Shown piece after piece: positions 25,352 to 37,673 of a stretch of DNA of 64,000 bases. The notes beneath the pieces are model-generated. The model did no database searches and was not told the origin of the DNA. It was given only the letters and a program-made list of their open reading frames with translations. The position numbers were made by a program, and so were the translations under genes. Each line of letters begins with the position of its first letter. Within the stretch, counting starts at the first letter, position 1. This DNA comes from Escherichia coli (GTDB lineage: Bacteria; Pseudomonadota; Gammaproteobacteria; Enterobacterales; Enterobacteriaceae): assembly GCF_011045215.1 (NCBI RefSeq), contig NZ_CP049201.1; one strand, given 5' to 3'.

Positions 25352-26133
25352 ACTTTATCCTTGCTCTGCGGTTTGCGAGCGGTGACATGAATATAACGCC
25401 CCAGGGTAATATACGGTTCATGACGGCAATAACGCGTTTCTAATTCAAGTAATGCTTCATAGCAGTCGCGCTGCTGGTGCTTCTCGCGCAGATAATCATG
25501 AAACACGCGAACGCCTGTCTTACCCATAATTTGCCAACCAGCTTCTTCCAGCCACAGATAAACCTGCGCCGGGTCGCGTGGATAATCTGGCGAAAGCGTC
25601 CGTTTTTTCTTTTTCGGCATTCCCGCCTGCACGTAATCAAAATTCCCGGCGACCATGTTATGCATCAACAAACCATGCGCATTGTAGAACATTAACGACA
25701 ACACGCCGCCTGGACGCAACACTGACCACAGGGTCTGCAATACGCTGCGGGGATCAGCCACCCACTCGAGCACCGCATGGAACAATATCAGATCAACGGG
25801 CGTTTCCAAATGCGAAGCAACATCCTGAGCGGCGCAATGTATAAATTGCATGTTGTCGCTCACACCTTTTGCTTCTGCCGCCTGTTTTGCGCGGTCGATC
25901 ATCTGCGCAGAAAGATCGCATAAAATGACCTGATGCCCGCGCTCGGCCATTTTGATTGCGGTCTGCCCTTCTCCACCGCCCGCATCCAGCACACGCAGTT
26001 TTTGCGGACCCATTTCCGCCAGCACGCGATCGAGATCCTGCCACAGAATAGCCTGTCGAAGCTGCCCTTTGGTGGTGCCGTAAATGTTACGGGAAAACTT
26101 TTCCGCAATATCATCAAAATTGCGATCCTGCAT
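25348..26133 (-). CDS. cmoM: SAM-dependent methyltransferase SmtA/CmoM, ~261 aa
   Basis: ORF track frame 25348..26145; motif VLDAGGGEG (SAM-binding); 4-bp overlap with mukF start. Confidence 0.9.
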
Positions 26134-26268
26134 TGCTTTCTCCACCGGTTGGCTAAGACGTTTTCTGATAAAGACGCTATTTTGTCACAGCCACGGCGAG
26201 AATGAACCCGTCTGGTGTAATATCGCTGGCGATCCCTTGCTATATGGTTAAAAAAGGAACCAGAAAGG

Positions 26269-27048
26269 ATGCTTTTTACACTGAAAAAAGTGATTGGCAA
26301 TATGTTGCTACCACTTCCGCTGATGTTGTTAATTATTGGCGCTGGCCTGGCGCTGCTGTGGTTTAGCCGTTTTCAAAAAACCGGGAAGATTTTTATTAGC
26401 ATTGGGTGGCTGGCACTCTTGTTATTGAGTTTGCAACCGGTAGCCGACCGCCTGCTGCGTCCCATCGAAAGCACCTATCCGACATGGAATAATTCGCAAA
26501 AAGTGGACTATATCGTGGTGCTCGGAGGTGGTTATACCTGGAACCCGCAGTGGGCACCGAGCTCTAATTTAATCAATAACAGTCTGCCACGCCTGAATGA
26601 GGGTATCCGTTTATGGCGCGAAAATCCGGGTTCAAAACTGATCTTCACGGGAGGCGTAGCAATAACCAATACGGTGAGTACAGCGGAAGTAGGTGCCAGA
26701 GTTGCGCAATCGCTGGGCGTGCCGCGCGAGCAAATTATCACCCTGGATTTGCCAAAAGATACCGAAGAAGAAGCTGCGGCAGTGAAACAGGCGATTGGTG
26801 ACGCCCCTTTCCTGCTGGTGACCTCCGCATCACATCTGCCGCGGGCGATGATCTTTTTTCAGCAGGAAGGGTTAAATCCGCTACCAGCCCCGGCGAATCA
26901 GTTGGCCATCGACTCGCCGCTTAACCCGTGGGAACGGGCAATCCCTTCTCCGGTCTGGTTGATGCATAGCGATCGTGTTGGCTATGAAACGCTTGGCCGC
27001 ATCTGGCAGTGGCTGAAAGGTCCGTCAGGCGAGCCACGGCAAGAGTGA
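26269..27048 (+). CDS. elyC: Envelope biogenesis factor ElyC (YcbC, DUF218), 259 aa
   Basis: ORF track 259 aa; N-terminal TM segments. Confidence 0.88.
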   Translation: MLFTLKKVIGNMLLPLPLMLLIIGAGLALLWFSRFQKTGKIFISIGWLALLLLSLQPVADRLLRPIESTYPTWNNSQKVDYIVVLGGGYTWNPQWAPSSNLINNSLPRLNEGIRLWRENPGSKLIFTGGVAITNTVSTAEVGARVAQSLGVPREQIITLDLPKDTEEEAAAVKQAIGDAPFLLVTSASHLPRAMIFFQQEGLNPLPAPANQLAIDSPLNPWERAIPSPVWLMHSDRVGYETLGRIWQWLKGPSGEPRQE

Positions 27049-27918
27049 TTTTGATGCCAGATCGAAGTTGCGCCGACTAAATCGTCCGGTATTAACCAGT
27101 TGCGCAACTTCATCCCATAACACATACAACCAACGCCGCCAGATGAACGACTCCGCCACTGGCGCGCGTTGCAGGTAACTCCAGAGCAAATCTTCCGCCA
27201 GAGAATTATCCATTAGTCGGAACAGTTCGTATTCCCGCGGTGCCCAAAGCATTAGTCCCGGCCCGACCATCGCCAGTAACTGATCGCTGCGCGAATCTTT
27301 CAGCATGCTGCGTAAACAGAAGTTACCGTGAATCAACACACAATTGTCGTTAAAGCCTTCAAATAATGCCGGGAGACATTCGCGAGTGCGAAACAGGATC
27401 CGCTTATCCTGCATCGTCAGACCGGTGTTATTGAACTGATTGAGCGTGGTCCATAGCACTTCAACATGTTGCCGGTACCATGAGGGCCAGAAATTTTCCT
27501 GAGTATTGTCGACCGCGCCGACGCAACCGCGACTGTCCTGACGGTGCCAGGCCAGTAAGGCTTCAACGATTTGGTCTTTGAGCTGTTCCCAGCGTTCTGG
27601 TGTTCGGGCTGGTGCCTCCACCGAAACACCACGCATCCGCTCCAGTAGCAGGACATCAGGGCCGGGGTGTTCTTCATGCGTCATCACACCATAAATAGTC
27701 GGCATACGGACAGTCCCACTTCTTGCCAGCATGGTGGTTTTCCATGCCAGTTGTCGGGCTTTTCCGGGCGTACTAAAGCTTCTTGCCATTAACGGCATTG
27801 GGTTTCCCTGGCTGTCATACAAAGCCCACAACGCCGTATCCGCTTTTTCATTGACGCACTCAATACGACTGAGTTTTTCGCCCAGTAAATGGCTTAATTC
27901 GGCACGCAGCTGTTCCAT
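27025..27918 (-). CDS. ycbJ: Putative phosphotransferase/kinase-like protein YcbJ, 297 aa
   Basis: ORF track 297 aa; aminoglycoside-phosphotransferase-like composition; length matches recalled YcbJ. Confidence 0.8.
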   Translation of the reverse strand: MEQLRAELSHLLGEKLSRIECVNEKADTALWALYDSQGNPMPLMARSFSTPGKARQLAWKTTMLARSGTVRMPTIYGVMTHEEHPGPDVLLLERMRGVSVEAPARTPERWEQLKDQIVEALLAWHRQDSRGCVGAVDNTQENFWPSWYRQHVEVLWTTLNQFNNTGLTMQDKRILFRTRECLPALFEGFNDNCVLIHGNFCLRSMLKDSRSDQLLAMVGPGLMLWAPREYELFRLMDNSLAEDLLWSYLQRAPVAESFIWRRWLYVLWDEVAQLVNTGRFSRRNFDLASKSLLPWLA

Positions 27919-28071
27919 TCAGATTACCCTCATAAAAGCTACTGCTTTCATAATGAGCGCCAATATAAAAGATGTCACCTGAATGAGATCAATTGTTGAA
28001 AAGAAAAATTGAGGAAAATCGTAACGGTACGACACTCCTCCCAAAATTGGCTGAAGTGTCGTGAAGTGAAA

Positions 28072-28997
<926 letters not shown>

Positions 28998-29048
28998 AGT
29001 TCCTCCAGATGGATCGGGTTATGAATGCATAAATCTTATCATAATCAT

Positions 29049-30281
29049 TTATGCGACGGGGTCTATTTCCCAGCCGGTGCGGCAATCCGTAAAGAGACCT
29101 TGCGGGCAGTGTCCTAATGTCACCCGCGTTGCCTGCTGCCAGTTAGCGAAATCAGTAATCGCCTGACGTAACCCTTTTTGCAGCGTTGTCGTTGGTTTAA
29201 TACCTTCCTGTAACCACAGAGAGATAACTTCAAGGATGCCTGTCTGGCGATGCATTTTGGCATCCATTCGCCCAACTAATTGCCCACGATGTAATAACGG
29301 CAGAACAAAATAGCCATACTGGCGTTTCGGCGCTGGGGTATAGCACTCCAGCCGGTAGCTAAAATCAAAAAGCTGCTCTGCGCGTTTGCGATCCCAGACA
29401 ACAGGATCAAAAGGCGAAAGTACCGCGCTGTGCGTTGCAGTGAGCTTTCCGGCCAGCGCTCGCTCGAGTAGCGGCAGCAAATCAGCATGCAGCCAAAGAT
29501 TGCCCAATTTTTCAACATGCACAGCAATGATTTGCTGCTGTTCAGCCCTCGCTTCACGCCACGCCGCCAGTGCCGGACGTTTCAGCCGATAGTAATCTGC
29601 CAGCCACTGTTCGCGGAATATTCCCAGGCTACGCGCACTATTATCCAGCATGATGATTTCTGCTTCTGTTTGCGAAACGAGATCGCGCTCATCATCCCAG
29701 TCAGGCATGACACGGTGGGTTAAATCATAAACGCGCTGGAAGTTGCGCCGTTCAATCACCATCACCTTTCCGGCAGTAAATAAACCTTCCAGATGCCGTT
29801 TATGCGGCTTCCATTCCCACCAGCCGCTTGCACCTTTACGAGGATGCTCAAAATCGGCTGAACGTACCGGCCCCTTATCATGAATATGCTGAATTAACTG
29901 TGCAATTTCCGCCTCATGTTCCTGCATCCAGGCGTCTTTGTATTTCCAGCCCATTTTTTCAGGTGCCAGCATGCGGTGGCGAATAAGACGAAAGTCGCTG
30001 CGTGGCATAAAGCAGGCTTCATGCGCCCAGTATTCCATTAATTCGCCACGCGCCAGAGACTCATCCAGCCACTGGGCAGGATAATTTCCCAGACGACTGA
30101 AAAGCACCAGATATGGGCTACGGGCAACAATATTGATGGTATCGATTTGCAGCAAGGACATGCGGGAGATCGTTGCCGGAATATCCTCCAACGACGCTCG
30201 ACGGCGTGGTTTGTTTAACAGGCCTTGCGCGGCAAGGTGAAGATTACGCGCATCAGCAAGGGAGAGGTGCGGCAGCGACAT
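29049..30281 (-). CDS. ycaQ: Winged-helix DNA glycosylase family protein YcaQ, 410 aa
   Basis: ORF track 410 aa; length and position match recalled YcaQ. Confidence 0.85.
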   Translation of the reverse strand: MSLPHLSLADARNLHLAAQGLLNKPRRRASLEDIPATISRMSLLQIDTINIVARSPYLVLFSRLGNYPAQWLDESLARGELMEYWAHEACFMPRSDFRLIRHRMLAPEKMGWKYKDAWMQEHEAEIAQLIQHIHDKGPVRSADFEHPRKGASGWWEWKPHKRHLEGLFTAGKVMVIERRNFQRVYDLTHRVMPDWDDERDLVSQTEAEIIMLDNSARSLGIFREQWLADYYRLKRPALAAWREARAEQQQIIAVHVEKLGNLWLHADLLPLLERALAGKLTATHSAVLSPFDPVVWDRKRAEQLFDFSYRLECYTPAPKRQYGYFVLPLLHRGQLVGRMDAKMHRQTGILEVISLWLQEGIKPTTTLQKGLRQAITDFANWQQATRVTLGHCPQGLFTDCRTGWEIDPVA

Positions 30282-30317
30282 TCATGACTCCATCAATCGA
30301 ACGCTGCCGCGGCGTAA

Positions 30318-31304
30318 CTAGTTGCCAGAAGCCAGCGAGGTTAGTTGCGCAAGCAGTTTCGCTGGTTCATCACCTGAAAGCTGTGCGTCTACAGGCAAAT
30401 ACCACCAATTTTCTTCTGCAAAGGCCCGGCATTTCACCGCATCTTTTTCAGTCATTACCAGCGTTTGCCCGGCGCTTACCAACGCACTGACATCCGCATG
30501 GTTCAAAGACTGATGATCGGCCAGCGGTACACATTTTTCCGGTTGTACGCCGCACATCTTCAGCGTGGCAAAAAAGCGCGGCGGATGCCCAATCCCTGCC
30601 ATCGCCACCACATGTTCAAGCTGAGCAACGTCACAACGCGTACCGGTACGTAAATTCACCGCCTGACCCGGCAGCAGATGCATGGGGATTTCACCGCTGC
30701 GGGGGACACCGCCGTTGACGATTACCGCATCAACTGACTTTAAGCGCCCCGCTCGCTCACGCATTGGCCCCGCCGGCAACCACCAGCCATTGCCAAAGCG
30801 ACGCACACCATCAATAACGACAATTTCCACATCACGCGCCAGACGGTAATGCTGTAAACCGTCGTCGGTTACGATGATCTGCACATCAGGGTGTTGCGCC
30901 AGAATGGCTTTTACCGCATCAGAACGAACGGGAGAAACCGCAACAGGCGCATCAGTGCGTTGATAAATCAACACAGGTTCATCACCCGCCTGTGCTGTGG
31001 TGGTATCTGCCGACAATAACAGCGGATAAGATTCAGCCTTACCACCATATCCCCGCGATACGACCCCCACGCGAATACCGCACTGTTGCAACTGTTCCAC
31101 CAGCCAGACAACGACCGGGGTTTTTCCGTTGCCGCCTGCGGTGAGATTACCAACCACGACAACCGGTACGGGGGCACGCCAGGCGCGCTTCAGTTTTAGT
31201 TTATAGCAAAGACGGATCGCGCCACTCACCAGGCCATACAACCAGGAGAGTGGCAGCAATAGCCGCCACAAAGGGGATTCACCAGACCAGATTTTTTCGA
31301 TCAT
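30318..31304 (-). CDS. lpxK: Tetraacyldisaccharide 4'-kinase, 328 aa
   Basis: ORF track 328 aa; P-loop [12 protein letters not shown]. Confidence 0.95.
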
Positions 31305-33049
31305 TGGCCAAACTGCATTTTGTGAAGTTGCGCGTAAACGCCGCGGTGCTCAAGCAAATCGTTATGCGTACCGCGTTCCACAATGACACCATCCTCAACG
31401 ACCACGATTTCGTCTGCCTTTTCAATGGTAGACAAGCGGTGGGCAATCACCAGAGAGGTACGGTTTTTCTGCAACTCATCCAGTGCCGCCTGAATCGCAC
31501 GTTCGGATTCGGTATCCAGAGCCGAGGTAGCTTCATCCAGAATCAGAATCGGGCTATCACGCAGCAAGGCTCGAGCGATAGCAATACGCTGACGCTGACC
31601 GCCAGAGAGCAGCACGCCGTTTTCACCAATCACTGTATCGAGACCGTTATCCATCTTATTGATGAAGTCCATGGCGTAGGCCATACGCGCCGCTTCTTCA
31701 ATTTGCTCACGGCTGTACTGTTCAGTCCGTGCGTACGCAATGTTGTTAGCAACCGTATCGTTAAACAGATGGACATTCTGCGACACCAGAGCAACCTGGT
31801 TACGTAACGACGCCAGGGTATACTCGCGCAGATCGTGACCATCCATCAGGATTTCGCCTTCATCAATATCGTAAAAACGCGTGATCAGGCTGGCGATGGT
31901 TGATTTACCTGAACCAGAGCGTCCAACCAGAGCAACCGTCTTCCCTGCCGGAATTTTCAGGTTGATGTTACGCAAGGCGGGTACGTCACGTCCCGGATAA
32001 GTAAAGGTGACATTGCGGAATTCCACGTCGCCAGTCGCACGCTCGAGCACGCGCTTACCTTCGTCTTTCTCCTGCTCACTGTCCAGAATGGTAAACAGCG
32101 TCTGACAAGCCGCCATACCGCGCTGGAACTGGGCGTTAACGTTGGTCAGCGATTTCAGCGGACGCATAAGTGCAATCATTGAAGAGAAAACAACGGTAAT
32201 CGTACCGGCAGTCAGGCTATCCATGACACTTGGGAAGCTCGCCGCATACAGAACAAACGCCAGCGCCAAAGAGGCGATCAACTGAATGATCGGATCAGAG
32301 ATGGAAGAGGCTGAAACCATTTTCATCCCCTGAAGACGCATTCGGTTACTGACTTTATCGAAGCGTTTCGTTTCCACTTCCTGACCACCGAAAATCAATA
32401 CTTCTTTGTGGCCCTTCAGCATTTGTTCTGCGCTGGTGGTCACCTGCCCCATGGTGTTCTGCATGTTTTTACTGATGTTGCGAAAACGCTTCGATACAAC
32501 GCGAATCGCAATCGAAACAATCGGTGCCAGCACAATCAAAATGATCGACAGTTGCCAACTGTAATAGAACATCATGATGAACAGGCCGATGATCGACGCA
32601 CCTTCACGCACAACAGTAATCAGTGCGCCGGAAGAAGAAGAAGCAACCTGTTCGGAATCGTAGGTAATACGTGACAACAGCGTACCCGTTGACTGTTTGT
32701 CAAAGAATGAAACTGGCATTCCCATCATGTGACCAAACAGGCGGCGACGCATGGTCATTACCACCTTTCCTGATACCCAGGAGATACAGTAGCTGGAGAC
32801 ATAGCTGGTGATACCACGTAAAATCATCAGTCCGATCACCACCAGCGGCATCCACACCAGCACGGAGCGATCTGTTTTACCAAAGCCATCATCAAGAAGT
32901 GGCTTAAGGAGCGATAACATGAAGGTATCGCTGGCTGCGTTGAGGATTAACGCTACGCCCGCCACGATCAGACCCGCTTTAAAAGGCGCAATGGTTGGCC
33001 ACAGTCGGCGGAACGTCTGCCACGTAGAGAGATCTTTGTCGTTATGCAT
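31301..33049 (-). CDS. msbA: Lipid A/LPS flippase ABC transporter MsbA, 582 aa
   Basis: ORF track 582 aa; Walker [10 protein letters not shown], signature LSGGQRQR; 4-bp overlap with lpxK. Confidence 0.96.
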
Positions 33050-33085
33050 TCAAAAAACCAGCATTTGTTGAAATAGCCGCATATT

Positions 33086-35350
33086 CTACCCGTTATCCAC
33101 TGGCACGCCAAACCACTGATGATACCAACGAGGTAAAATTTGCTCCCTGAGGCTGCTAATCCGCCAGCCTTGTGCTGAAAAATTGACCGTTAGTTGCCCC
33201 TGATGAGGAGTATCAAGCCACGTATAACCCTGTTGTTGATAGCGATGCTTAACTTTGTTAGAGGGCAGTCGCCATGCGTTATAGCGCGATGCCGATGCGA
33301 GTGCCACTTTTCCATTCACTCGCTGAATTAATGGCAACGATGATGAGGTATTACTGCCATGGTGAGGTACCTGAAGCAATGTTGCCTGCACTTGCTGCCA
33401 GTAACGGCTTAGCATCTTTTGTTCAGCGGGGACTTCAATATCACCGGTTAGAAGAATGCTATTCGTCCCGTCATCAACCTTAACCACACAGGAATGGTTA
33501 TTTCCTTTATCGTTGCTAGCTTGTAAAGGCCAGTGCACGCTGAAACGCAATCCTTGCCATTGCCACGCTTCGCCACGCACACAGGGCTGATGATGTTCCC
33601 AGTTTAACGGACTTCTGATCCATAACATCGGCCATGTGTGCAATATTGAGTCCAGCCCTCCCCGGTGATCCAGATGTTCATGACTCAGAATAACGCCTTC
33701 CGGTTCAAGATTATGCCAGTGGAGCCAGGGGATAATCAGTTGTTGCCCACTATCCCCTTCAGGCCAGGCCAGTCCCGTGTCATAGAGAATCGCTTTGCCG
33801 TTTCTGGCTATCACCATTGCCAGCCCTTGCCCGACATCAAGCATGTACACTTGCCACTCGTCAGGTCGAGGTTTTTGCCACAGCGGCCAGCACATCAGCA
33901 AGCCTACAGCCACACACATTGCTGGCAACGTTCGCCAGGCGTTTAATCGCCATACCACCAGTAAGAACCATGGGGAAAATGATAGCCATTGCCAACGTTC
34001 AGCAATGTTGATCCACCCTTCTGGCAAACTCTTTAACCCCCAGAAAAGTAAAGCCAAAGACCGGTCGGCAAGAAACCATAACCCTTGCTCCAGGATTAAC
34101 GGCCCGCTTGAATGCACAACCATCGCGGCGAGGATCAACGGAACCGTGATAAATGTCACCAAGGGAATTGCTAATAGATTTGCAATAAACGAGGTCAGAC
34201 TAATGCCATGAAATATGACGATTTGCACGGGCATAAGCAGAAGTGTGATTCCCAGTTGCAGATGGATGAGGGAAACAACTGCACGCAATACCGGCGGCAG
34301 TTGCCACTCAGGACAGGGAAACCACTGATACCAAAATATCAATGCCGCGACCGCAGCGGCAGAGAGCCATAAACTTTGCGAGAGAATGGCAACAGGATCC
34401 ATCAGCAAAATTGCCGCCAGACAACATATCCATACATCCCAGCCACTCCACTGTCGCCCACTTAACTTAAGCATTCCCCACGTAGCAAGCGCCACAACGG
34501 TACGCAATGCAGGAGGTTGCATTCCCGTCAGCCAGGCATAAAAAGCAGCACAGCAGATTCCGCCAATTAATGGCATTTGCCAGTGGATCCAGCGCCCAGG
34601 CAGAAAAATTTGTCCACTGCGAATGAGTCCGGCAGCCAGCAACGCCGCAAAAGCGATGTGCAATCCCGATATCGCCATTAAATGCGCCGTTCCAGTATCA
34701 CGCATGATATTTTTGATTTCTTTAGGGACGGATAACCGTTCCCCCATACCTAAACCAAGAATAACCGCATTCCACGGATAGGGTTGCAGCGTTGTTTGTA
34801 GTGACGCCAGATACTGTGCACGCAGGCTACAATTCGGTTCAATAACACTTGCCTGCAGAAAGCGGCCGGTGAGCGGCTGATGCTGGGCAATGGCATAACG
34901 CTGGCTATCAAAGCCGCCATCATTAAGTTGACCATGAACGGCACGAACTTTGAGTTTCATTGACCACAGTTGTCCGGCACAAACCGCTTGCGGAAGATAT
35001 TCGCCATACAGCACAAGGCCTGGCGCAGGGAATATACGTCGACCTTGTAGATGAGTAATTTGACCGTAATGAGTGGTCATGCCGTCAGTTGCAGTGATCT
35101 CAACAATTGCATCCTGCGTCGCGCCAGTTAAGGTTTCTCCTGCCCACAAAATTTGCTTTGCCGCTAATATACCCCAAATGAAAAACAGCAACGTCAGCGC
35201 GATATAACGTACGGTTTTAACAGGGATAAATGCCAGTACGCAGGCGAAGAGAGTCAGAAACGCAAGGGTTAATGTCCCAGGCAAATGGGGCAAAAGCAGC
35301 AACGGAAAAATTCCGCTAATTATGCATACGCCGACTGTCGTTATTTTCAT
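33086..35350 (-). CDS. ycaI: ComEC/Rec2-family inner-membrane protein with C-terminal metallo-beta-lactamase domain, ~754 aa
   Basis: ORF track frame 33086..35380; polytopic N-terminal region and motif SHEHLDHRGG near C-terminus. Confidence 0.9.
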   Translation of the reverse strand: MKITTVGVCIISGIFPLLLLPHLPGTLTLAFLTLFACVLAFIPVKTVRYIALTLLFFIWGILAAKQILWAGETLTGATQDAIVEITATDGMTTHYGQITHLQGRRIFPAPGLVLYGEYLPQAVCAGQLWSMKLKVRAVHGQLNDGGFDSQRYAIAQHQPLTGRFLQASVIEPNCSLRAQYLASLQTTLQPYPWNAVILGLGMGERLSVPKEIKNIMRDTGTAHLMAISGLHIAFAALLAAGLIRSGQIFLPGRWIHWQMPLIGGICCAAFYAWLTGMQPPALRTVVALATWGMLKLSGRQWSGWDVWICCLAAILLMDPVAILSQSLWLSAAAVAALIFWYQWFPCPEWQLPPVLRAVVSLIHLQLGITLLLMPVQIVIFHGISLTSFIANLLAIPLVTFITVPLILAAMVVHSSGPLILEQGLWFLADRSLALLFWGLKSLPEGWINIAERWQWLSFSPWFLLVVWRLNAWRTLPAMCVAVGLLMCWPLWQKPRPDEWQVYMLDVGQGLAMVIARNGKAILYDTGLAWPEGDSGQQLIIPWLHWHNLEPEGVILSHEHLDHRGGLDSILHTWPMLWIRSPLNWEHHQPCVRGEAWQWQGLRFSVHWPLQASNDKGNNHSCVVKVDDGTNSILLTGDIEVPAEQKMLSRYWQQVQATLLQVPHHGSNTSSSLPLIQRVNGKVALASASRYNAWRLPSNKVKHRYQQQGYTWLDTPHQGQLTVNFSAQGWRISSLREQILPRWYHQWFGVPVDNG

Positions 35351-35503
35351 GCACCCCTCCCTGTTTATGGAAGTGTGCAATTTTGTTGAGCGGTTGTCTG
35401 GTGGGAATTTTGCGTTCCCCGAGGCACGTTCAGAAGAATTTAACGAGAGGGTGAAAACTGCTCAAAACTCTGCGAGGCAGCTTCCAGTTCCAGATTAGAT
35501 AAA

Positions 35504-35531
35504 TGAAAAAAGCACCCGACAGGTGCTTTTC
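35504..35531 (-). terminator. Rho-independent terminator downstream of ihfB
   Basis: agcacccgacaggtgct hairpin flanked by A-run (plus) giving T-run on minus strand. Confidence 0.8.
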
Positions 35532-35555
35532 TCTCGTTCAAGTTTGAGTAAAAAC

Positions 35556-35840
35556 TTAACCGTAAATATTGGCGCGATCGCGCAGTTCTTTACCAGGTTT
35601 AAAGTGAGGAACGTATTTTCCTTCCAGTTCTACTTTATCGCCAGTCTTCGGATTACGTCCGGTACGTGGTGCGCGGTAGTGCAAAGAGAAACTGCCGAAA
35701 CCGCGGATTTCAATACGCTCGCCCTGCGCAAGAGTCGAGGCCATATGCTCCAGCATCTCTTTTACTGCATCTTCAACCGTCTTGGCGGGAATGTGCGATT
35801 GCTGGGTGGCAAGTCTTTCTATCAATTCTGACTTGGTCAT
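35556..35840 (-). CDS. ihfB: Integration host factor beta subunit, 94 aa
   Basis: ORF track 94 aa; sequence [94 protein letters not shown]. Confidence 0.98.
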
Positions 35841-35889
35841 GATTCCTCCGGTTCCTTAAAGGCAAATTAAGCGGCTGCTGTTGCTGCAT

Positions 35890-35920
35890 TGATTAAGGGC
35901 GGCCGTAGCCGCCCTTAGTG
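35890..35920 (-). terminator. Stem-loop after rpsA (weak terminator allowing read-through into ihfB)
   Basis: aagggcggccgtagccgccctt perfect hairpin; no strong T-run. Confidence 0.5.
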
Positions 35921-35999
35921 CTTGATTACAGGACGAAACCTGCAATCTGTCAAGTAAACTCAACAAACTTCGGAATAAAAATCCCGAAGAGTCAGAGAA

Positions 36000-37673
36000 T
36001 TACTCGCCTTTAGCTGCTTTGAAAGCTTCAGCCATTGCGTTGTTGGAGAAGTTTGCATCTTCCTGTTTGTTAACAGTTGCGATTGCATCTTTCTCGTCAG
36101 CTTCGTCTTTCGCACGAACAGACAGGCTGATTGCACGGTTTTTACGATCAACGCCGGTGAATTTAGCTTCAACTTCGTCGCCAACGCTCAGAACCAGGGT
36201 AGCGTCTTCAACGCGGTCACGGGATGCTTCAGAAGCACGCAGGTAACCTTCAACGCCGTCAGCCAGTTCTACGGTTGCGCCTTTAGCGTCAACTGCAGTT
36301 ACTTTACCGGTTACGATAGCGCCTTTCTTGTTCAGAGCAACCCAGTTGTTGAACGGATCTTCTGCGAGCTGTTTAACGCCCAGGGAGATACGTTCACGTT
36401 CTGCGTCAACCTGCAGAACAACTGCAGCGATTTCGTCGCCTTTTTTGTATTCACGAACTGCTTCTTCGCCTGCAACGTTCCAGGAGATGTCAGACAGGTG
36501 AACCAGGCCGTCGATGCCGCCGTCCAGGCCGATGAAGATACCGAAGTCAGTGATAGACTTGATTTTACCTTCAACACGGTCGCCCTTGTTGTGGGTTTCC
36601 GCGAACTGCTGCCACGGGTTAGCTTTGCACTGTTTCAGACCCAGGGAGATACGACGACGTTCTTCGTCGATATCCAGAACCATAACTTCCACTACATCGC
36701 CAACGTTAACAACTTTGGACGGGTGGATGTTTTTGTTGGTCCAATCCATTTCGGAAACGTGTACCAGGCCTTCAACGCCTTCTTCGATTTCAACGAAGCA
36801 GCCGTAGTCGGTCAGGTTGGTCACGCGACCAGTCAGTTTGGTACCTTCCGGATAACGTTTAGCGATAGCTACCCACGGATCTTCGCCCAGCTGTTTCAGG
36901 CCCAGGGATACACGGGTACGTTCGCGGTCGAACTTCAGCACTTTAACAGTGATTTCGTCGCCCACGTTGACGATTTCGCTCGGATGCTTAACGCGTTTCC
37001 AGGCCATGTCAGTGATGTGCAGCAGGCCGTCAACGCCGCCCAGATCAACGAATGCACCGTAGTCAGTGAGGTTCTTAACGATACCTTTAACTTCCATGCC
37101 TTCCTGCAGGTTTTCCAGCAGCTGATCGCGCTCTGCGCTGTTTTCGGATTCGATAACGGCACGACGAGAAACAACAACGTTGTTGCGCTTCTGATCCAGC
37201 TTGATTACTTTAAATTCAAGCTCTTTGCCTTCCAGGTGCAGAGTGTCACGCACCGGACGAACGTCTACCAGAGAACCTGGCAGGAACGCACGAATACCGT
37301 TCAGCTCAACAGTGAAGCCGCCCTTAACTTTGCCGTTGATAACACCGGTAACAGTTTCAGCATCTTCGTAAGCTTTTTCCAGCGTGATCCAGGCTTCGTG
37401 ACGTTTAGCTTTCTCACGGGACAGCAGAGTTTCACCGAAGCCGTCTTCTACTGCGTCCAGAGCAACGTCAACTTCGTCACCTACCTGGATTTCCAGCTCG
37501 CCCTGGGCGTTTTTGAACTGCTCAGCCGGGATGGCGGACTCAGATTTCAGACCAGCGTCAACCAGTACTACGTCTTTGTCGATAGCAACAACAACGCCAC
37601 GAACGATAGAACCCGGGCGGGTTTCGATTTCTTTTAAGGACTCTTCAAAGAGTTGAGCAAAAGATTCAGTCAT
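36000..37673 (-). CDS. rpsA: 30S ribosomal protein S1, 557 aa
   Basis: ORF track 557 aa; N-terminus [26 protein letters not shown]; six S1 repeats. Confidence 0.98.

Follow-up and report, generated by a model that had tools for sequence, protein, structure and literature searches.

Crosslink-repair gene ycaQ between the msbA-lpxK and ycaR-kdsB units of Escherichia coli: a probable promoter-less passenger in a variable slot

In the 64,000-nt stretch of Escherichia coli DNA that was analyzed (the window), six co-oriented genes, ycaI, msbA, lpxK, ycaQ, ycaR and kdsB, are found on the minus strand (Table 1), and in the closest genome ycbJ also lies on this strand. The ycaI and msbA genes are separated by 36 nt, msbA and lpxK overlap by 4 nt, lpxK and ycaQ are separated by 36 nt, ycaQ and ycaR by 51 nt, and ycaR and kdsB overlap again by 4 nt. 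A first-pass annotation, made from the sequence alone, had placed ycaQ between the kdsB-ycaR and lpxK-msbA pairs, co-oriented with them and with short gaps, and the ORF list, the Pfam searches and the annotation agreed with this description. The 3.5-kb region around ycaQ was found in 5425 of 5426 complete E. coli genomes (best identity 99.3%), so that the arrangement is a fixed feature of the species, and neither chance nor an assembly artefact. The start codon of ycaI is uncertain, with 764 aa from a TTG codon in the ORF list and 754 aa in RefSeq. An Rfam scan of positions 26000-36500 detected no RNA family.

Table 1. Genes and sequence elements of the ycaQ region, in window coordinates and in the order of transcription
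Feature	Position	Strand	Description	Basis
ycaI	33086-35380	-	Inner-membrane protein of the ComEC family; opens the upstream operon	Pfam Competence, Lactamase_B, DUF4131
msbA	31301-33049	-	Essential lipid A/LPS flippase (ABC transporter)	Pfam ABC_membrane and ABC_tran
lpxK	30318-31304	-	Essential tetraacyldisaccharide 4'-kinase, stop codon TAG	PF02606, E 4.9e-115
lpxK-ycaQ spacer	30282-30317	-	Carries Shine-Dalgarno GGAG at 30291-30288
Candidate rut site/attenuator	30133-30300	-	C-rich, G-poor stretch up to the published Rho termination region	C/G scan and Adams 2021 bicyclomycin data
ycaQ	29049-30281	-	Crosslink-repair DNA glycosylase, 410 aa	ATG-started ORF; Pfam PF06224
YcaQ catalytic motif	30149-30141	-	Codons of Q45-I46-D47	LLQIDTIN, residues 43-50
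Possible -35	29065-29060	-	TAGACC, within the ycaQ 3' end	Predicted
Extended -10	29041-29033	-	TGaTAAGAT	Predicted
ycaQ-ycaR spacer	28998-29048	-	Candidate ycaR-kdsB promoter	Consensus scan and cross-species motif
ycaR	28815-28997	-	Trm112p-like protein, 60 aa, first gene of the ycaR-kdsB unit	Pfam, ORF list
kdsB	28072-28818	-	Essential CMP-Kdo synthetase	PF02348 (CTP_transf_3), E 1.3e-79
Hairpin downstream of kdsB	28061-28030 (element 28026-28061)	-	CGACACTTC...GGAGTGTCG	Fold

The YcaQ protein matched the AlkZ-like Pfam family (PF06224) with an E-value of 2.7e-79, residues 38-381 covering profile positions 1-329 of 329, and the gene is annotated as 'crosslink repair DNA glycosylase YcaQ' in the closest E. 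coli genome (99.3% DNA identity over 3.5 kb). The product was 99-100% identical to E. coli proteins named YcaQ. It corresponds to E. coli K-12 YcaQ (b0916; YQL subfamily, HTH_42/AlkZ-like, PMC7367128), i.e., it is the same gene, with the same 410 codons, the same Q45-I46-D47 motif and the same flanks, and it differs from the K-12 copy by strain-level substitutions only. The Q-aliphatic-D motif, represented by Q45 and D47 in E. coli YcaQ, has been defined previously (PMC9040887), and the QID residues were invariant across 50 YcaQ orthologues. The K-12 enzyme unhooks nitrogen-mustard and azinomycin interstrand crosslinks and excises 7-methylguanine (PMC7367128, PMC9040887); its substrates are N7-alkylguanine interstrand crosslinks, as assayed in vitro with this near-identical protein, and it backs up the UvrA-dependent pathway (nucleotide excision repair), the K-12 mutant being sensitive to mechlorethamine (PMC7367128). 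The label 'DNA-repair-like', which the gene had received from the first-pass annotation, was hence too modest, because the near-identical K-12 protein has been biochemically characterized: ycaQ encodes an already characterized interstrand-crosslink repair enzyme, and publications exist on the gene as well as on its enzymology and operon membership.

The dN/dS ratio of ycaQ was 0.05-0.08, compared with 0.05-0.07 for the essential lpxK gene, and ycaQ is thus under purifying selection of a strength similar to that acting on lpxK. In the tree comparison YcaQ evolved at 1.5 to 3 times the rate of its neighbours. Among the 120 matches listed, the homologue search with YcaQ returned E. coli proteins throughout, with at least 99% identity; since such a listing is of no use for diversity, a search against 50%-representatives was used to find the relatives of YcaQ. 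The YQL subfamily is characterized by a C-shaped fold for DNA binding that is built from three tandem winged-helix motifs. When YcaQ was compared with the PDB sequences, the sole relative was 9zd6_A, which is labelled 'Cytoplasmic protein' (E 1.5e-50).

Acinetobacter baumannii AlkX (PMC11228520) is likewise a YQL-type crosslink glycosylase, with the same type of motif (Q39/D41) and 32% identity to YcaQ. However, alkX, which by prediction forms a unit of one gene under its own promoter, was found to respond to mechlorethamine by induction, whereas the operon gene ycaQ has no separate promoter and is not inducible. Streptomyces sahachiroi AlkZ and the AZL proteins (PMC9040887) share with YcaQ both the Pfam family PF06224 and the unhooking chemistry, but the AZL proteins carry QxQ or HxQ motifs and are toxin-specific self-resistance enzymes encoded in or near biosynthetic clusters. 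In contrast, YcaQ has the QID motif and a broad specificity, and its gene has housekeeping neighbours; with msbA, lpxK, ycaR, kdsB, ycaI and ycbJ around it, ycaQ lies outside a biosynthetic gene cluster, which is one of the marks of the YQL subfamily.

A ycaI-msbA-lpxK-ycaQ operon is listed by EcoCyc and was used in PMC10328246, PMC7367128 and PMC11228520, and the window shares with this unit the gene order, the orientation, the spacing and the lack of a promoter before ycaQ. In the lpxK-ycaQ gap, where a 3-codon mini-ORF (ATGGAGTCATGA, 30293-30282) abuts the ATG of ycaQ, the consensus scan, which is a weak kind of evidence, revealed neither a promoter-like nor a terminator-like site. When CRISPRi was directed at lpxK, the ycaQ mRNA decreased 11-fold as measured by qRT-PCR, and when it was directed at msbA, ycaQ decreased 3.6-fold and lpxK 15-fold (PMC10328246). 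The Term-seq tables of Adams 2021 hold no 3′ end under lpxK, ycaQ or ycaR, and among the rows listed there is none between the ihfB terminator (window ~35505) and the hairpin that follows kdsB. No entry for the genes of the ycaQ region was present in the SMRT-Cappable-seq supplements, and neither PMC8151780 nor PMC3001078 contained msbA promoter data. That ycaQ is transcribed with envelope genes, as had been proposed from the sequence, was therefore supported by the site-free gap, by the polarity of the lpxK and msbA knock-downs and by the Term-seq tables, and neither the consensus scan, nor the CRISPRi polarity, nor Term-seq pointed to a promoter and a terminator belonging to ycaQ. The membership of ycaQ in this operon and the constitutive, non-inducible expression that results from it have been discussed before (PMC7367128, PMC9040887, PMC11228520), and the low level of this expression had also been noted by the authors of the YcaQ and AlkX studies (PMC7367128, PMC11228520). 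A putative sigma-32 promoter and up-regulation by both heat and cold shock have been described as well (Bradley 2020, PMC7367128).

The stretch from 30300 to 30150 is the most C-rich and G-poor one of the msbA-to-kdsB mRNA, with a modest C/G ratio of ~1.4. In supplementary file 2 of Adams 2021, a Rho termination region is reported inside ycaQ at MG1655 position 969537 (Rho score 4.17, p 2e-10), which maps to window position ~30133, i.e., ~148 nt into ycaQ and immediately after the C-rich stretch. The reads at this region amounted to 104 upstream and 33 downstream in the absence of bicyclomycin (BCM), and to 121 and 160 in its presence, these values coming from a single genome-wide data set scored in 800-nt windows. 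Rho termination at the C-rich lpxK-ycaQ junction and in the first ~150 nt of ycaQ would then lower ycaQ relative to lpxK, and we infer that the Rho site could be a cause of the low abundance of YcaQ.

At the other end of ycaQ, the consensus scan gave a sole promoter-like match, which overlaps the ycaQ stop codon, and no terminator-like match. The ycaQ-ycaR spacer held no terminator-like hairpin; it was rejected as a terminator, as it can form only a weak A/U hairpin and its fold was no better than those of shuffled sequences (z = -0.10). Upstream of the ycaR ATG, at a distance of 25-70 nt, an extended -10-like motif, TGNTANNNT, was found in 67 of 78 Enterobacterales loci, compared with 4.0 ± 1.9 in shuffled sequences, although the count is inflated by the relatedness of the loci. 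In the position counts the TG, the TA and the final T are invariant by construction, and a T two bases before the TG and a C before the last T were also conserved. The hexamer selected by the consensus scan, TATGAT, was discarded as the -10 of ycaR in favour of the overlapping TGnTAnnnT, because the A at its second position is not conserved across species. With the extended -10, transcription of ycaR-kdsB is predicted to start near 29026.

A CRISPRi screen and a Northern study both treated ycaR-kdsB as a separate two-gene unit (PMC5954155, bioRxiv 10.1101/2021.11.18.469045), and the extended -10-like motif was present both in the loci with ycaQ and in those without it, so that ycaR-kdsB appears to keep its own promoter whether or not ycaQ is there. 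Judged from this conservation, the ycaR promoter is probably active and probably predates the arrival of ycaQ. The first-pass annotation had assumed one envelope transcription unit; this holds for ycaQ together with msbA-lpxK, but not for ycaR-kdsB, which both the literature and the conserved -10-like motif set apart. Transcription that passes ycaQ would meet no terminator before ycaR-kdsB, which would also be driven from the promoter in the 51-nt gap. A 3′ end is reported downstream of kdsB in two growth conditions (MG1655 position 971644; supplementary file 1 of Adams 2021); it maps to window position ~28026 and is, among the rows listed, the first one after the ihfB terminator. Taken together, the scans and the published CRISPRi, Term-seq and bicyclomycin data suggest that ycaQ is co-transcribed with msbA-lpxK and damped by Rho, and that read-through into ycaR-kdsB is not blocked. 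The four-gene unit of EcoCyc would thus be a simplification, since the data suggest that it is leaky at both ends of ycaQ, i.e., transcription drops in a Rho-dependent manner ~150 nt into the gene and meets no terminator before ycaR-kdsB.

The content of the interval between lpxK and ycaR was compared by scanning a single genome of each species with KdsB as the seed, which gave 80 loci from the Enterobacteriaceae, Erwiniaceae, Pectobacteriaceae, Yersiniaceae, Hafniaceae, Morganellaceae and Budviciaceae, and onto these loci seven proteins of the window were mapped. Both lpxK and ycaR are present in 78 of the Enterobacterales loci, and for these the interval was scored with the help of ORF lists and Pfam searches. 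In the sampled Enterobacterales msbA-lpxK and ycaR-kdsB were always neighbours, and what lies between them varied. In all 35 Enterobacteriaceae species and in most Erwiniaceae the interval held ycaQ alone, 21-62 nt behind lpxK. It was empty (39-293 nt) in Dickeya, Pectobacterium, Brenneria, Budvicia, Xenorhabdus, Tatumella, Izhakiella and three Pantoea, and in Erwinia endophytica it contained an IS1 InsA remnant. One cold-shock-domain gene was present in Photorhabdus, Moellerella and Providencia, two such genes in Edwardsiella, and two of them together with a reverse-strand HGLS (PF07063) gene in Yersinia. In Serratia the same three genes were accompanied by ycaQ at a distance of 2.7 kb from lpxK, and this distance was 1.1 kb in both Rahnella (two cold-shock genes and ycaQ) and Hafnia (two cold-shock genes, ycaQ and reverse xanthine-dehydrogenase-like genes).

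In 25 of the 78 loci ycaQ was absent from the slot, a count that refers to the slot only. In Izhakiella the 272-nt slot still contained a degenerate ycaQ remnant that includes a stop codon (46 nt at 78% identity, E 7e-6), which is direct evidence of ycaQ loss; a sensitive search of the 25 slots without ycaQ gave no other credible relic, the remaining matches having E > 0.01 and being noise. None of six distant YcaQ homologues (42-49% identity) had an LpxK, MsbA, KdsB or Trm112p neighbour. In Vibrio, Pseudomonas and Haemophilus, lpxK, ycaR and kdsB are adjacent.

The YcaQ tree contained the same family-level clades as the tree of MsbA, LpxK and KdsB (neighbour-joining trees with no support values), and the pairwise distances of YcaQ and of the three flanking proteins correlated with a Spearman coefficient of 0.80-0.87. 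The GC content of ycaQ (~0.51) was like that of its neighbours, and in the ORF list and the annotation no integrase, tRNA gene or repeats were found beside it. From these sequence comparisons, ycaI-msbA-lpxK and ycaR-kdsB would be ancestral neighbour units whose junction is a variable slot that received different cargo in different lineages. The ycaQ gene would have entered this slot once, early in the Enterobacterales, and would then have descended vertically and been lost in several lineages; a single gain followed by losses, rather than repeated homologous replacement, is what the trees suggest. In the lineage of the Enterobacteriaceae and Erwiniaceae the other cargo may have been lost, so that ycaQ came to lie directly behind lpxK. 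Given this tight placement and the lack of a promoter of its own, ycaQ is probably the final gene in the transcript of the msbA-lpxK operon, and read-through from this operon would provide a constitutive, damage-independent and low-level expression of ycaQ.

The presence of ycaQ among lipid A and Kdo genes is thus, with a probability of about 0.75, a matter of genome history, i.e., ycaQ is a promoter-less passenger that shares no function with the envelope genes. We infer the absence of functional coupling from the comparative data, and the best reading is that of genomic hitch-hiking, in which the non-essential ycaQ sits between two essential units, at a place where insertions are tolerated. 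The association had been called unexplained from the sequence alone; it is real, but it has already been discussed (PMC7367128, PMC9040887, PMC11228520) and is largely explained by the comparative data. In the alternative, crosslink repair would be co-regulated with the synthesis of lipid A and Kdo, and this would keep ycaQ in the envelope operon. For example, envelope or heat stress might admit alkylating or aldehyde crosslinkers, and a sigma-32 or envelope-linked control would raise the repair capacity at the same time. The tight arrangement in 35 of 35 Enterobacteriaceae and most of the Erwiniaceae species sampled, the strong purifying selection on ycaQ, the putative sigma-32 promoter with the heat- and cold-shock response (Bradley 2020, PMC7367128), and the position of ycaQ after cold-shock genes in Yersiniaceae and Hafniaceae would all fit such coupling. 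However, linkage kept across lineages and recurring in distant taxa, which would mark a coupled pathway cluster, was not seen: the envelope genes are adjacent without ycaQ in Pectobacteriaceae, Morganellaceae, Budviciaceae, Yersinia, Edwardsiella, Tatumella and several Pantoea, ycaQ is 1.1-2.7 kb away from lpxK in Serratia, Rahnella and Hafnia, with a divergent gene in between in Serratia, and neither the six distant homologues nor AlkX show such a linkage. In addition, the cited papers describe no LPS phenotype of ycaQ mutants, and we consider functional coupling unlikely. Even so, the exact placement of ycaQ may have some selective value, as the tight linkage to lpxK in every Enterobacteriaceae species sampled goes together with purifying selection as strong as that on lpxK.

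Two further explanations leave less room. If ycaQ formed an isolated transcription unit between a promoter and a terminator of its own, its position would have no effect on its expression; the spacers on both of its sides (36 and 51 nt) do exceed the 4-nt overlaps of msbA/lpxK and ycaR/kdsB, and the msbA knock-down, which lowers ycaQ 3.6-fold and lpxK 15-fold, leaves room for some independent transcription. However, the 11-fold decrease of ycaQ upon the lpxK knock-down, the lack of a promoter-like match upstream and of a terminator-like match downstream of ycaQ, the fold of the ycaQ-ycaR gap, which does not exceed that of shuffles, and the lack of a Term-seq 3′ end at the 3′ end of ycaQ make this isolation highly improbable. 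A recent horizontal insertion of ycaQ in E. coli, e.g., as part of a small genomic island, would be in line with the foreign cargo that the slot takes elsewhere (the IS1 remnant, the HGLS gene and the xanthine-dehydrogenase-like genes) and with the fact that the family is commonest in Actinobacteria (PMC9040887). But the GC content of ~0.51 does not deviate from that of the flanks, 5425 of 5426 E. coli genomes carry the region, YcaQ and the flanking genes group into the same family-level clades, and no integrase, tRNA gene or repeats were seen next to ycaQ. An insertion of this kind is scarcely credible, and recent horizontal transfer was rejected on account of the composition, the species-wide presence and the tree agreement.

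With ycaQ taken as a passenger of the msbA-lpxK operon, its operon placement explains why the E. coli gene is constitutive and its product of low abundance, and why the Acinetobacter homologue is inducible. When msbA or lpxK is knocked down or carries an insertion, a DNA-repair enzyme is lowered as well, and insertions in ycaQ may disturb the read-through into the essential kdsB. Furthermore, an adjacency that extends over a whole family (35 of 35 Enterobacteriaceae) need not mean a shared function, which calls for caution in guilt-by-association annotation. The finding on ycaQ itself was already known and has little weight as a discovery; what is new here is the comparison of the lpxK-to-ycaR interval across the Enterobacterales.

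The Rho-dependent drop might also be a regulated valve instead of a passive attenuation, with the lpxK-ycaR junction as a long-lived slot for read-through cargo, but this is a speculation to which we assign little likelihood. If it were true, titration of Rho or uncoupling of translation, triggered by cold or heat shock or by envelope or translation stress, would raise the YcaQ glycosylase and an extra ycaR-kdsB transcript together, and genome protection would be conditionally linked to Kdo activation. A role in stress of this kind would be in keeping with the cold-shock-domain genes that occupied the slot earlier.

The interval between lpxK and ycaR, which in Enterobacteriaceae is occupied by ycaQ alone, has lost this gene in parts of the Erwiniaceae. 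The Izhakiella capsodis interval retains a decayed ycaQ relic, with 78% identity to Pantoea ycaQ over 46 nt, which in translation reads CEC*TLATKCQHDYFLPP (versus LECYTPAPKRQYGYFVLP); therefore, the gene was lost in that Erwiniaceae lineage. In Erwinia endophytica an IS1 InsA-like ORF stands in place of ycaQ, and the deletion may have been mediated by an IS element. The coordinates of these and other features are listed below.

Features of the lpxK-ycaR interval and of YcaQ-like loci (L numbers denote loci of other genomes compared with the window)
Feature	Locus	Position	Strand	Remark
Decayed ycaQ relic	L063	9550-9821		position of the whole I. capsodis lpxK-ycaR interval
IS1 InsA-like zinc-ribbon ORF (PF03811)	L045	9027-9200		E. 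endophytica lpxK-ycaR interval, replaces ycaQ
Cold-shock-gene set	L071, L076, L043, L049, L050, L062, L067, L079, L086			lpxK-ycaR intervals
YcaQ-like genes beside xanthine-dehydrogenase or urate-catabolism genes	L062; L002; L087	5682-9374; 7508-11201; 6303-11200		
Inverted repeat GCATAAAT-N12-ATTTATGC	window	29028-29055	minus	
Rho termination region and preceding C-rich stretch	window	30133-30300	minus	Adams 2021 data mapped to window
Three-codon mini-ORF, ATG GAG TCA TGA	window	30282-30293	minus	sequence
lpxK stop codon TAG (rare amber)	window	30318-30320		lpxK essential gene

Other cargo was found in the same interval: one or two cold-shock-domain genes (PF00313) are present in Morganellaceae, Hafniaceae and Yersiniaceae, and the Yersinia and Serratia intervals carry an additional reverse-strand HGLS gene (2-oxoadipate dioxygenase/decarboxylase, PF07063). 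Genes for xanthine dehydrogenase or urate catabolism adjoin YcaQ-like genes in two unrelated settings, i.e., the Hafnia interval and a metagenome homologue (45% identity); this proximity may be a coincidence, or may hint at a tie to purine salvage or catabolism.

One record titled Escherichia coli (strain SCPM-O-B-8794, locus L007) is probably a member of one of the cryptic clades of Escherichia, because its divergence from the window (dS 0.2-0.7 across its genes, and only 90% identity in YcaQ) far exceeds the spread within E. coli proper.

At the ycaQ-ycaR junction, the inverted repeat, which is conserved in Escherichia and absent from Citrobacter and Enterobacter, flanks the candidate ycaR -10 element (29041-29033) on both sides, and the ycaQ stop codon lies inside its span. 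Within ycaQ, the bicyclomycin data of Adams 2021 place a Rho termination region ~148 nt from the gene start after mapping to the window, and it is directly preceded by the C-richest, G-poorest part of the msbA-to-kdsB mRNA. Other Rho regions of that data set lie within ycaI (~35199) and ycbJ (~27550).

Upstream of ycaQ, the mini-ORF is in frame with the gene, overlaps the Shine-Dalgarno GGAG, and its stop directly abuts the ycaQ ATG. As for the lpxK stop codon, only seven essential E. coli genes, lpxK among them, end in amber TAG (PMC3001078).
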